From: an uncultured Pseudomonadota bacterium
GTDB lineage: Bacteria; Myxococcota_A; Polyangia; Fen-1088
DNA length: 64,000 bases
Assembly: GCA_963847705.1 (NCBI GenBank)
Contig: CAWKBC010000029.1
Span: 160,001-224,000 of the forward strand
Direction: 5' to 3'
The notes beneath the pieces are model-generated. The model was given only the letters and a program-made list of their open reading frames with translations. It had not been told where the DNA came from and ran no database searches. A program made the position numbers and the translations under genes. This document shows positions 6,215 to 12,052 of the stretch, one piece after another (position 1 is the stretch's first letter; the number at the start of each line of letters is the position of its first letter).

Positions 6215-8266
<2,052 letters not shown>

Positions 8267-8331
8267 TTGGGGCGGCAGTCTAGCTGGAGCGCGCCGTCTG
8301 CGGTAGTGAAGATCCTGGTTACGATCAAAGC

Positions 8332-9340
8332 TTGGCGGTCGCCAGCGCGGCGGAGCGCGACCGCGGAGGCGCCCGGCAGGAACAGCGCGCGGAGGAGGAC
8401 GCGGAGGCGCCCGGCAGGAACAGCGCGCGGAGGAGGACGCGGAGGCGCCCGGCAGGAACAGCGCGCGGAGGAGGTCGCGGAGGCGCCCGGCAGGAACAGC
8501 GCGCGGAGGAGGTCGCGGCGCTGGCCGGTGAGAGAGCGATCTCCGACGCCGAGCTCGATGTCGAGCGGGAGCAACGCCGGCGAGAGCTCGGCGAGATCTT
8601 TCGGCGAGAGCGGGAGGCCACCGATCTCCGCCTCGCGCACGAGCGGGTCACGTCTGACGAGGCGGTGGCGGCGCGGGAAGCGTTCCTCGGGATGGTCAAC
8701 CATGATCTGCGAACCATGGTGGGGGGGATCGGCCTGAACCTGGCCCTCTTGGTGAGGGATGTCGTCGATGACGAGCGGGGACGGCGGATCGTCAAGCGCG
8801 TCGACGCCATCGAGCGCTTCACGGGGCGGATCAACCGCCTGGTCGACGACCTCCTCGACGTCGTCGGGATCCACGCGGGAAAGCTCTCCGTCGTTCGCGC
8901 GCCTCACGACGCGATCGCCGTCGTGCGCGACGCGATCGCCGACATGGCGCCCTCCGCGTCGGCGAAGGGATCGCCCTGTCGGCCGAATTGACGGGCCCTC
9001 CCTTGCTCGCCCGTTCGACCACGATTGCGTCCTCCAGGTTCTGGAGAACCTCATCGGAAATGCCGTGAAGCTCACGCCCGCCGGTGGCCGCGTCCTGGTC
9101 CGCGTCCCCTCCACCGAGCCGGAGGTGCGGCTCACGGTCGAGGACACCGGCCCGGGCGTCGCGGGCGACGTTCGCGGCATCTTCGAACCGTTCGCCCAGG
9201 GGACGAACATCTCCCGACGCGGGCTCGGGCTGGGACTCTACATTTCGAGGTGCATCGTCGAGGCCCACGGCGGCAAGCTCTGGGTCGACAAGACCTCCGG
9301 CGAGGGAAGCGCCTCCTGTTTCACCCTCCCCCGCGCCTGA
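8332..9340 (+). pseudogene. Sensor histidine kinase (HisKA + HATPase) disrupted by frameshifts
   Basis: H-box MVNHDLR in frame 8332-8991. N/G boxes (NLIGNAVK, EDTGPG, GLGLGLYI) in frame ending 9340. Apparent single-base deletions near 8969 and 9013. No clear start. Confidence 0.75.
8363..8514. repeat. 38-bp tandem repeat x4 (gcggaggcgcccggcaggaacagcgcgcggaggagg(a/t)c)
   Basis: Copies start at 8363, 8401, 8439 and 8477, inside the 5' part of the kinase. Confidence 0.95.
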
Positions 9341-9507
9341 GCGCGAGCCGTCGGCCGCGGGACGAGGCGCGAGGACAAGGCCGCCTCTCACGATTCGTCA
9401 CGTCTTGGCGATCCGTCGGCGACTCCTCGCGCCGTTGGGTTTCGAGCCGTTGGGCCTCGGGGCAGGCCGTTGGGCGCGCGCGGCTGTCCCCCGCAACATC
9501 CGCCTAA

Positions 9508-10206
9508 TCAAGTGGGGTGCGGTCGCGGAGCTGCGGCCGGCCGTTCCTCGACCCGCAACGACCCGCCGGCGCGCCGCCAGCCGACGCGCGCCATCCAGGT
9601 GGACGGCAGGGCCGTGGCCGGCGCCAGATCCGTGGGCTCCGGTCCTCGCTGCCACCCCGAAAAGTGTGGCCCGGAGCTCCGTGGGTCGATGCACGGGGGC
9701 GCACGCAGGTGCTTCCGGAAGTTGAGCAGCACGTACACCATGCTCGCCCGCGTCTGCCGCGGCGTCGTGAGCGGGCGGGCGTGGTACCGATCGCCAACCA
9801 CCCTCCCCCGGCGGCCGAGCGCGCGATTCACCGCCAGCGCCAGGCGGATCGCGAGGCCATGCATGCCGCCGCGGGTCCGGCGCGGCTCGTCTCCCTCGAC
9901 GATGAAGTGTCCGTGATCCTGCTGGATCGAGAAATGGACGATTCGAAAGCGATCGATCGAGGCGCGGGCGATGGCCCGCCGGAGCGCGCCGAACAGCCGG
10001 GGGGAGCGAAGCGACGGCAGCCCGGGCGTGGCCCGGATGGTGAGCTGCACCGGATACCGCGGGTCGATCTTGGGTCGCGTGACGTGCGGCATCGACGGTC
10101 GGCCGCGCGGCTTACGGCCGGCGCCTTTACGAGCCCCGCCCCACGTTCTCGCCGCCGGAATGGGCAGCCCCAGCTGTCGAGACCGTCCCGACTTGATTGC
10201 GCGCAT
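9508..10206 (-). CDS. REP-associated tyrosine transposase (RAYT)/IS200-like Y1 HUH transposase
   Basis: HFSIQQDHGHFIVE (HxH), DRYHAR, catalytic Tyr in YVLLN, N-terminal WGGARKGAGRKP. ATG at 10206. Confidence 0.85.
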   Translation of the reverse strand: MRAIKSGRSRQLGLPIPAARTWGGARKGAGRKPRGRPSMPHVTRPKIDPRYPVQLTIRATPGLPSLRSPRLFGALRRAIARASIDRFRIVHFSIQQDHGHFIVEGDEPRRTRGGMHGLAIRLALAVNRALGRRGRVVGDRYHARPLTTPRQTRASMVYVLLNFRKHLRAPPCIDPRSSGPHFSGWQRGPEPTDLAPATALPSTWMARVGWRRAGGSLRVEERPAAAPRPHPT

Positions 10207-10239
10207 GTTCTGTCTTCGGCGCGGGAGGCGCCGAGTTGC

Positions 10240-10346
10240 GCAGGGCGCGAAGGGTTCGCCGGGCGCGAAGGGTTGCGCCGGGCGCGAAGGGTTGCAGGGC
10301 GCGAAGGGTTCGCAGGGCGCGAAGGGTTCGCAGGGCGCGAAGGGTT
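10240..10346. repeat. ~18-bp tandem repeat x6 (gc(a/c)gggcgcgaagggtt(c))
   Basis: Directly visible upstream of the transposase start. Confidence 0.95.
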
Positions 10347-10360
10347 GATTCGGCGGATGT

Positions 10361-10520
10361 CGCTCCTGAAGTGACAATCGACTGGAATGGGAGCGTGGAA
10401 CGCTCGTGAAGTGACAATCGACCGGAATGGGAGCGCGCAACGCTCGTGAAGTGACAATCGACCGGAATGGGAGCGCGCAACGCTCGTGAAGTGGCAATCG
10501 ACCGAAAAGGGGGGCGCGGA
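10361..10520. repeat. 40-bp tandem repeat x4 (cgctcgtgaagtgacaatcgaccggaatgggagcgcgcaa)
   Basis: Copies at 10361, 10401, 10441 and 10481. Inner two identical, outer two degenerate. No spacers. Confidence 0.95.
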
Positions 10521-10585
10521 ACGCGAGTTCGGCACCGGCGATGTGACGAATCGTGAGAGGCAGCCTAAGGCAGGCCTAAGGCGGC

Positions 10586-11056
10586 CTAGGCGCCGCCGAG
10601 CGCCCGGACCAGCGTCGCCGCCCGCGCGCCGCTGGCCCGGAACGTCAGCTTCCGACCGCCGTCTGGCAGGATCTCGATCTCGATCGTCAGCCGCTCCGCC
10701 GGCGCGGCCTCCGGGAAGCGGTCGAGCCATTCGATCGCCACCGCGGCGCGATCGAAGGCGTCGGCCAGGCCCAGCTCGTCGAGCTCGCGCGGGTCGTTGA
10801 TGCGGTAGAGGTCGGCGTGGACCAGCGGGACGCGCCCCGGGTGCTCGTTGACCAGCGCGAAGGTGGGGCTGGCCACGTGCCGCTCGGCGGGAACCTCCAC
10901 CCCGCGCGCCACGCCCTGCACGAACGTCGTCTTGCCGGCGCCCAGCGGGCCGACCAGCGCCAGGACGTCGCCGGCCGCCAGCGCGCGCCCGAGCCGCTCG
11001 CCGATCGCCTGCAGATCGGCGGCGGTGGTCGCGGTGAGGGTCAGCGCCTGCGGCAT
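10586..11056 (-). CDS. tsaE: t6A tRNA-modification ATPase TsaE
   Basis: GPLGAGKTTFVQG, SPTFALVNE, HADLYR, IEW. Confidence 0.95.
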   Translation of the reverse strand: MPQALTLTATTAADLQAIGERLGRALAAGDVLALVGPLGAGKTTFVQGVARGVEVPAERHVASPTFALVNEHPGRVPLVHADLYRINDPRELDELGLADAFDRAAVAIEWLDRFPEAAPAERLTIEIEILPDGGRKLTFRASGARAATLVRALGGA

Positions 11057-11110
11057 CGCTCGTGGGCCGTCACACGTAGATGGTCAACACGTAGATGGTC
11101 AGATGATGGG

Positions 11111-12052
<942 letters not shown>

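Follow-up and report, generated by a model that had tools for sequence, protein, structure and literature searches.

A RAYT-like Y1 gene between IS50-type ends: a multi-copy cassette of soil myxobacteria that is probably moved in trans

We analyzed a window of 64,000 nucleotides (positions 160,001 to 224,000 of contig CAWKBC010000029.1, GenBank assembly GCA_963847705.1) and describe here a unit of 1171 bp, at positions 9387-10557 of the window, that carries a gene for a RAYT-like HUH/Y1 protein. This gene (10206-9508 on the reverse strand, 232 aa) is the only one between the ends of the unit. The unit is flanked by the stop codon of tsaE (PF02367) and by the 3' end of a split histidine-kinase gene, and it belongs to a multi-copy cassette of about 1.17 kb. 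A preliminary description of this DNA proposed that a protein with HxH and YVLLN motifs is enclosed by a terminal inverted repeat (TIR) of 27 bp, with arms at 9378-9404 and 10540-10566, and is not accompanied by TnpB. These observations are accurate: the arms are 93% complementary (2 mismatches per 27 bp, a perfect core of 19 bp) and form the longest inverted repeat within positions 8000-12000, and the 1171 bp between the ends leave no room for a second long gene such as TnpB. On balance we favor the interpretation that the unit is a non-autonomous cassette with IS50-type ends, which carries the Y1 gene and is probably moved in trans by a DDE transposase.

The 27-bp repeat is real, and it resolves into two different structures. 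The actual ends have their boundaries at 9387 and 10557, and 18 bp of each 19-bp end lie inside the 27-bp arms. The rest of each arm is a copy of a 9-bp target-site duplication. Because this 9-mer is near-palindromic, the duplication was absorbed into the apparent 27-bp inverted repeat and was reported in the preliminary description as not obvious. Immediately outside each end there is a YTAG half-site that is part of the target DNA. The earlier statement that the motif has no GTAG-like foot is to this extent incomplete. Two further features had been missed, namely an inner 17-bp motif, present in three copies, and the tandem target units at 10567-10589, which finish in a CTAG containing the tsaE stop codon (10586-10588, reverse strand). 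A similar additional target unit adjoins the cassette copies L033, L052, and L077 and one complete IS50-type copy, L445. From one to five inverted copies of the inner 17-bp motif are found at the right end of every cassette (n = 42; L049 was left out of this set as a segmental duplicate). The features of the locus are listed in Table 1.

Table 1. Features of the cassette and its borders (positions in the window)
Feature	Position	Strand	Basis or remark
Degenerate outer half-site CAAG	9376-9379	.	beside duplication copy 1
Target-site duplication, copy 1, AGGCCGCCT	9378-9386	.	8/9 identical to 10558-10566
IS50-type end, downstream of the Y1 gene	9387-9405	+	6/7 IS50 consensus positions
Inner 17-bp motif over the stop codon, likely Y1 binding site	9496-9512	+	inverted copies at right end
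RAYT-like HUH/Y1 gene, 232 aa (H98, H100, Y158)	9508-10206	-	open reading frame (ORF), profiles, and model
Inner 17-bp motif over the start codon, likely autoregulatory/binding site	10192-10208	-	
Five degenerate tandem repeats of about 18 bp, upstream arm	10227-10346	.	repeat analysis
Inner 17-bp motif, copy three	10344-10360	-	
40-bp tandem expansion, upstream arm, copy-specific	10361-10511	.	repeat analysis
IS50-type end, upstream of the Y1 gene	10539-10557	-	6/7 IS50 consensus positions
Target-site duplication, copy 2, AGGCAGCCT	10558-10566	.	direct repeat of 9378-9386
Two additional tandem target units with YTAG half-sites	10567-10589	.	sequence

The protein contains the motifs DHGH (residues 97-100) and YVLLN (158-162). 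Its membership in the Y1 family is visible only through an alignment, because profile scans of the single protein fail: it has no Pfam match, its score with REP_Tyr_transpos (NF047646) is 16.6 bits against a cut-off of 80, and a search of genome G000 with PF01797 gave no match. One search returned 1409 relatives, and 902 clusters were obtained at E ≤ 1e-30; the relatives are labelled Polyangia. In an alignment of 104 diverse members H98 is invariant, H100, Y158, and N162 are conserved in at least 90% of the sequences, and the consensus reads YVLxNxRKH. Y1_Tnp (PF01797) is matched by 90 of the 104 members and REP_Tyr_transpos by 103 (E ≤ 0.01), so that the profile search suggested in the preliminary description is negative for the single protein and positive for its family. 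A structure model built from this alignment has a predicted local distance difference test score (pLDDT) of 89.5 and supersedes an earlier, poor model from 43 close sequences (53.8). Its top match among solved folds is TnpA-REP of E. coli (4ER8; E = 8e-5, root-mean-square deviation 2.5 Å, TM-score 0.63 by target length), followed by TnpA structures of IS200/IS605. The HuH motif, in which u is Gly in the clade of the window protein, and one catalytic Tyr on a TnpA fold place the protein in the Y1 HUH superfamily, whose chemistry, cleavage of single-strand DNA and its rejoining via a 5'-phosphotyrosine, it may share. All 54 intact copies have YVLLNF, and no Pfam match to a helix-turn-helix (HTH) domain was found in the single protein or in the family members scanned. 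Judging by sequence and model, this is a RAYT-like Y1 protein with DHGH and YVLLNF and not a class-2 protein with YxxxNP; the proposal of a myxobacterial RAYT-like protein agrees with the labels of the relatives, the fold, and the alignment.

In the 6.1-Mb genome there are five exact occurrences of the 19-bp core, each of them at the end of a cassette or a remnant, so the genome-wide search that had been suggested shows that the motif is not there by chance. Three complete copies, with amino-acid identities of 100, 98, and 95%, are present in the window genome, along with four solo ends. Among 41 related genomes, 22 gave a match to the protein, with 3 to 53 matches per genome (53 in G020, 21 in G017). 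We fetched 91 loci from the listed matches, mostly full-length ones, and 43 of them have both ends within 4 mismatches of a 20-bp end pattern. An exact direct repeat of 7-9 bp lies outside the ends in 14 of these 43 copies (0.12 expected from swapped flanks) and a repeat with at most one mismatch in 20 (0.98 expected); the remaining 23 matched worse. When the flanks are read as inverted repeats, just 3-4 of the 43 copies pass at each length, against 20 in direct orientation, and the possibility that the flanking 9-mer is part of a TIR was rejected on these grounds. If the ends are drawn by the IS50 consensus, exact duplications of 9-11 bp are found in 9 of 42 copies (0.10 expected) and duplications with at most one mismatch in 19 of 42 (0.34 expected). 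The 9-mer was also considered as a carried core inherited between copies; this was rejected since it varies across the tree and is similar only in L043-L045 and in the G000 pair.

Target specificity is strong. At 75 of the 107 ends TA lies 7-9 bases outside the end, in most cases within CTAG, and the left and right half-sites have matching offsets in 19 of 24 copies (P = 0.001). The target consensus is YTAG-N5-7-CTAR, with copy-specific duplications of 9-11 bp. Of the 99 half-sites, 59 are the stop codons of open stretches of 80 codons or more whose third positions look coding. Free double half-sites are scarce: there are 4-15 of them per genome, and 16 in G000. A 4-nt periodicity around the half-sites (36/82 against 4.8) was examined as a possible signature of the Y1 protein and rejected, since it is also present at the IS50-type copies L429 and L445 and at free sites in genomes without the element.

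Next to tsaE, the unit stands right after the stop codon in 3 of 25 genomes (G000 and, in opposite orientation, G001 and G020) and is absent from the other 22. Empty sites, which the preliminary description proposed to look for at this locus, were thus found, but not with base precision. Orthologous sites without the element were seen for several other copies, with diverged intergenic DNA; searches with the flanks of six copies gave orthologous sites for four of them, nothing for two, and no base-exact empty site. A single copy of the duplication is not visible at such sites because the intergenic DNA is too diverged. The C47 copy lies in the start of a repeated sequence, and three other copies of this start have the 9-mer once, which is a paralogous empty site. 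In G020 near-identical copies occupy three different sites (L043-L045) with perfect duplications. The mean mismatch of the duplications, 0.22, is of the same order as the synonymous divergence between copies, 0.11-0.16. The element is a multi-copy mobile cassette of soil myxobacteria. Outside these genomes, no end match was found at the 12 metagenome tsaE loci, out of 80, that are closest, no joint across the cassette with base-level value in two sets of four public sequencing runs (small shares of the window), and no end pattern in viral contigs. One contig of run X2 passes over 8293-10670 with a flank of 35 letters and was left out of the evidence.

Two groups of loci deserve a separate mention. 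The element-free sites G000:C27 and G000:C30, orthologous to those of L043 and L081, have two tandem units of 9-11 bp among three stop-like half-sites, resembling excision footprints. For L034, L071, and L087 (G020 and G017), one G020 copy has a left flank that matches one G017 copy and a right flank that matches another; this flank pattern suggests a rearrangement between cassette copies.

The key question is to which enzyme the ends belong. The IS50 subgroup of the IS4 family has the end consensus CW------Y---CA-A--W- (Table 1 of PMC2266710), and the cassette fits its seven defined positions in 83, 82, 84, 82, 81, 59, and 69 of 84 ends. A search for an 18-bp end pattern in 89 genomes of the order gave matches in 13 genomes from 5 of 19 genera, and the reversed control pattern matched none of the 89. 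In four of these genomes (G347, G360, G397, and G362) this end occurs again, likewise in a CTAG-N7-C context, and bounds gene-less MITEs (miniature transposable elements with inverted repeats). Among their seven complete pairs, 57-451 bp long, the duplication is perfect in two, has one mismatch in two others and two mismatches in one, and is unmatched or unclear in the remaining two; variable lengths of 10 and 11 bp occur among them. The MITE interiors have no blastn match to the cassette and lack the inner 17-bp motif. A fifth genome, G367 (L381), has an end that differs by one base from the 18-bp pattern of the cassette, at a distance of 54 bases upstream from a truncated gene for an IS4/Tn5-type transposase (PF14706, NF033590). 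Neither the Y1 protein nor the family profile found a match in any of these five genomes, whose assemblies are fragmented and 84-97% complete.

Intact relatives of the G367 gene were found in 3 of 401 genomes of the class: G008, which belongs to the window genus, G549, and G600. They are autonomous IS50-type elements of 1.46 kb with a single gene for a 468-aa DDE transposase, which matches PF14706 and DDE_Tnp_1, has the YREK motif, and has the Tn5 transposase as its best solved relative (E = 2e-30). G008 has four copies that are 99.5-100% identical. All six complete copies of the three families (four from G008, one each from G549 and G600) have the same outer end, the target YTAG-N7-CTAN, and a perfect duplication. 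The window end at 9387-9405 shares its outer 8 bp with the G008 elements, and the end at 10539-10557 has 16 of 19 bases in common with their left end. The G008 element is a candidate helper, a recently active Tn5 relative that targets stop codons. More distant relatives (30-50%) have related ends and other targets, as judged by eye. Since the same ends, target, and duplication bound DDE elements and also, in genomes with no match to the Y1 family, MITEs, parsimony assigns all three to the DDE family, and the ends most plausibly belong to the IS50 subgroup and not to the Y1 protein. The suggestion that the end motif is the protein's own cognate end is therefore not upheld; what does stand is a TIR-bounded unit with non-autonomous relatives, which is neither an IS200/IS605 element nor a REPtron flanked by repetitive extragenic palindromes (REPs).

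The following observations concern these elements and the wider Y1 family. Intact IS50/Tn5-type copies with strict YTAG-N7-CTAN targeting are located at G008:C3:1056082-1057485 (L429) and at L441, L445, L447, L468, and L469. The MITEs are those of G347 (L391, L400, L411, and L413), G360 (L421), G397 (L407), and G362 (L380); their interiors are of at least three types, those of G347 and G360 being weakly related and that of G397 an almost perfect hairpin of about 230 bp. One Y1-family gene contains a second, more distant element of IS4 type, flanked by a duplication of 9 bp (G008:C3:643842-645626, L449). Five matches of the target-plus-end pattern across the phylum have no Y1 or IS50 gene alongside and look like chance. 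Distant Y1-family members are present in 21 of 301 genomes of the phylum. Those examined lack the cassette ends, some having long ragged arms and others none; many of the members without these ends have, ahead of the start codon, a motif similar to the inner 17-mer, as judged by eye. In G256 (L308, L329, L338-L344), G107 (L333, L345, L349, L357), and G202 (L319, L337) distant members lie between long inverted arms, which are ragged and degenerate, about 60-260 bp long, 70-85% complementary, common to the copies within a genome, and without a clear duplication. These arms may be other captured shells or the own ends of the Y1 family.

The assignment of the ends bears directly on the alternative of an autonomous Y1 transposon, which is also how the preliminary description read the unit and in which the Y1 gene replaced the DDE gene of an IS50-type element and its product nicks both strands at two CTAG half-sites and makes the duplication. 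No complete cassette has any gene other than Y1, the five additional end pairs that were examined in G017 and G020 all enclose deletions of this gene, and its catalytic residues are invariant in the intact copies and under selection. In the same direction point the lack of a helper in G017 and G020 and the covariation of the half-site offsets, which two sequence-specific nicks would give. However, an unrelated enzyme would have to reproduce the ends, the target, and the stagger of an IS50-type DDE transposase, and the same ends have spread as MITEs where no Y1-family gene was found. The variable duplications of 10 and 11 bp also occur at MITEs and so are not specific to Y1. In addition, Y1 transposons are reported, in excerpts of PMC4810608, to have neither TIRs nor a target duplication, and the characterized enzymes to make none. 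We consider an autonomous Y1 transposon unlikely.

The reading that we prefer, mobilization of the cassette by a DDE transposase, rests on the ends, target, and duplication shared with IS50-type elements, which make such an enzyme the likely mover. With IS-type ends, a non-cognate gene, and flanking duplications, the unit has the features of a non-autonomous derivative of an insertion sequence (IS), and its mobilization would occur in trans. IS derivatives that carry a passenger are termed tMITEs. Tn5 transposes by cut-and-paste, with a transposase dimer and staggered strand transfer. If the same chemistry applies here, a transposase dimer would bind both 19-bp ends and excise the unit, and the 3' ends of the unit would be joined to staggered nicks at the centers of two CTAG half-sites. 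Gap repair would then duplicate AG-N5-7-CT. The insertion would fall behind genes and leave their stop codons intact because CTAG in these GC-rich genomes is largely a stop-codon word. The Y1 protein may bind the inner 17-bp motifs as its own operator or end sites. It could be kept intact by selection on its own nicking, by a benefit to the host, or by harm from defective versions, and not by making the insertion. The Y1 gene is thus likely a captured but still selected cargo, probably moved by another enzyme, and not a new self-moving system.

A number of observations weigh against this reading. Plain cargo present in 16-30 copies per genome should drift, and the Y1 gene does not. Of 63 copies examined for selection, 54 are intact (nine were dropped as broken, over-long, or without a start anchor), and H98, H100, and Y158 are kept in all 54. 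The ratio of non-synonymous to synonymous substitution rates (dN/dS) of the Y1 core is 0.09-0.11 within each of four genomes, which means purifying selection. For copy-private changes, according to simple site counts uncorrected for mutation bias or recombination, dN/dS is 0.15 in G020 (48 synonymous and 19 non-synonymous changes) and 0.11 in G017 (33 and 9), versus 0.34-0.55 in the C-terminal tail. This selection signal stays unexplained by the model of a cargo moved in trans. The second difficulty is the helper. An IS50-type gene was found in 3 of 26 genomes of the genus and was not found in G000, G017, G019, G020, or G021; the search with PF14706 gave a single match, in G000, which is below the cut-off (19.1 bits; C18:21192-21296, L466) and lies inside an open frame of 786 aa. 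No helper was found in the assemblies of G017 and G020 (9 and 20 contigs, 79% and 73% complete), yet G020 has near-identical copies with perfect duplications. G008, on the other hand, has an active IS50-type element and 21 Y1-family matches, yet no cassette: there are no end-pattern matches in it, and the eight Y1 copies examined are without such ends. Furthermore, positions 9-12 are not the same in the IS50 ends as in those of the cassette, and a search for autonomous elements yielded none whose end is identical to the cassette end. The helper gene was not found in plasmids at E 1e-60 either. In favor of the reading, a missing helper seems usual here, since none was found in the MITE-rich genomes G347, G360, and G397. 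Members of the IS50-type group are also frequent in metagenomes, where most lie on contigs no larger than an IS (1.4-3 kb), which can drop out of bins.

Because the selection signal is unexplained, we retain as possible, though rather doubtful, a model with two enzymes. According to it, an IS50-type DDE transposase makes "shells" consisting of ends and duplications, and the Y1 protein, acting in cis, copies or swaps the interior or restores its own copy, one conceivable route being recombination of single-strand intermediates at the ends; as a result, copies whose Y1 gene works would spread. The model fits the purifying selection, which extends to copy-private changes, and the lack of a helper in copy-rich genomes. 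At six sites common to G017 and G020 the ORFs are no closer to each other than random cross-genome pairs (ranks 5-22 of 31), five of these six have a neighbor with 96-97% identity in their own genome, and orientation is flipped at the shared sites L039/L075 and L057/L077 and at tsaE. However, with targets as scarce as they are, parallel insertions explain the flips and the non-orthologous interiors equally well. Besides, the youngest copies carry perfect duplications, as fresh insertions should, the duplications have mismatches of the same order as the synonymous divergence, and no direct sign of Y1 activity was seen. If true, the two-enzyme model would explain dozens of selected copies in genomes without a visible helper, and the cassette would represent a stage, still in existence, on the way from mobile Y1 genes to domesticated RAYTs.

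PMC5581495, in the consulted part, portrays RAYTs as domesticated genes of low copy number, and one could suppose that the present gene, too, is immobile and serves the host, the repeats being REP-like decorations that it generates, as in a RAYT or TIRtron. The closeness of the fold to TnpA-REP (4ER8), the purifying selection, and the presence of a CTAG-bounded REPIN-like family in the genome are in line with this. However, there are up to 53 matches per genome and near-identical copies at unrelated sites, and the copy-specific duplications and empty orthologous sites largely refute domestication for the whole unit. The REPIN-like family also occurs in genomes without a match to the protein (e.g., G002, G003, G007, G009, G018, G023, and G024). 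We regard this explanation as very unlikely.

The REPIN-like family itself consists in G000 of doublets of about 74 bp with CTAG at both ends and a hairpin per end, some of them in tandem and sharing one CTAG (e.g., C47:44739-44815, C21:60203-60353, and C31:11-343). It gives 59 blastn hits in G000 and was matched in 18 of the 26 genomes that represent the genus, some of them without the Y1 gene. The C47 cassette has this family as its target, and in G001 a member occupies the site orthologous to that of L043. As a candidate for the cognate REP of the protein it was rejected, since the two are not co-distributed.

Beside the cassette, the histidine-kinase gene at 8332-9340 (forward strand) is split across two frames, HisKA and then HATPase. 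Contigs of run X3 have one extra base near 8966 and near 9008, and the split gene is either a pseudogene or the product of an error in assembly. In G001, G017, G018, and G020 the interval from transketolase to tsaE does not contain it. Four near-identical tandem repeats of 38 bp at 8362-8513, upstream of transketolase, occur nowhere else in the genome.

The results have several implications. A Y1 gene with TIRs and duplications need not imply new Y1 chemistry, because the ends can be traced to a DDE family; this apparent exception is thereby removed, and the same check of the ends can be applied to published TIRtrons. A relative of IS50/Tn5 with sharp specificity for paired YTAG, usually stop codons, steers its insertions to harmless gaps behind genes, which is of interest for transposon targeting. 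The strong purifying selection on a RAYT-like gene at 16-30 copies per genome is a puzzle, and for the question of RAYT function the system supplies a defined protein together with candidates for its binding motifs and for the helper.

Among known systems, the architecture is most readily compared with TIRtrons (TIRYT), i.e., Y1 genes between TIRs, published by Di Nocera et al. 2013 (PMC3733652), and it is thus not undescribed, contrary to the preliminary description. In both cases a RAYT-like Y1 gene is flanked by TIRs instead of REPs, and there are families of free TIR elements. TIRtrons mostly belong to subclass 2.1 (Quentin et al. 2018, PMC6006769, in the portion covered); GGGGWSAS is present in most of their TIRs, and subclass 2.1 members have a C-terminal HTH. 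By these excerpts the cassette differs, as its ends have no GGGGWSAS and its protein has YVLLNF in place of the Y---NP of class 2 and no Pfam HTH match. In addition, its TIRs can be traced back to a DDE element of IS50 type, and the unit as a whole is multi-copy. The words "target site" and "duplication" are not used in the available text of PMC3733652. Our literature search met the term "TIRtron" only in these two papers and a preprint. At the level of literature listings and abstracts (ISfinder, figures, and supplements being outside its scope), it found no report of a RAYT-like gene within IS50-type ends or of this target rule.

With RAYT/TnpA-REP of E. coli (4ER8) the protein shares the fold, HxH, and the aligned catalytic tyrosine. 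It differs in the sub-cutoff score with NF047646, in Gly within HuH, and in its extra basic N-terminal and W-rich C-terminal parts. Unlike a REPtron, the cassette has TIRs and no REP hairpin with a GTAG foot, and there are 3-53 matches per genome versus about one. IS200/IS605 elements are similar in the Y1 fold and in being multi-copy with one short gene, but the cassette has TIRs and duplications, lacks subterminal hairpins and TnpB, and has no YxxxQ motif.

The IS50 subgroup (IS50/Tn5; De Palmenaer et al. 2008, PMC2266710, used here in part) is similar in the 19-bp ends and in a duplication of about one helical turn. The cassette duplication is 9-11 bp by the consensus, or 7-9 bp if the ends are placed one base further out, versus 8-9 bp listed for the subgroup and about 10 bp for the IS4 family; it lies inside the range of the family and equals or exceeds that of the subgroup. 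The window unit differs in having only the Y1 gene and no DDE/YREK gene, which is present in the elements of G008, G549, and G600, and in the strong YTAG-N5-7-CTAR stop-codon targeting, which the portion of PMC2266710 covered does not mention for IS50. According to the same source, passengers in the IS4 family are reported for IS231 only and had not yet been seen in other subgroups. Like the mobile insertion cassettes of IS231 and like MITEs/tMITEs, the present cassette has IS ends around a non-cognate gene and would be moved in trans; unlike them, it carries as its passenger a transposase-fold protein that is under purifying selection and present in dozens of copies per genome.

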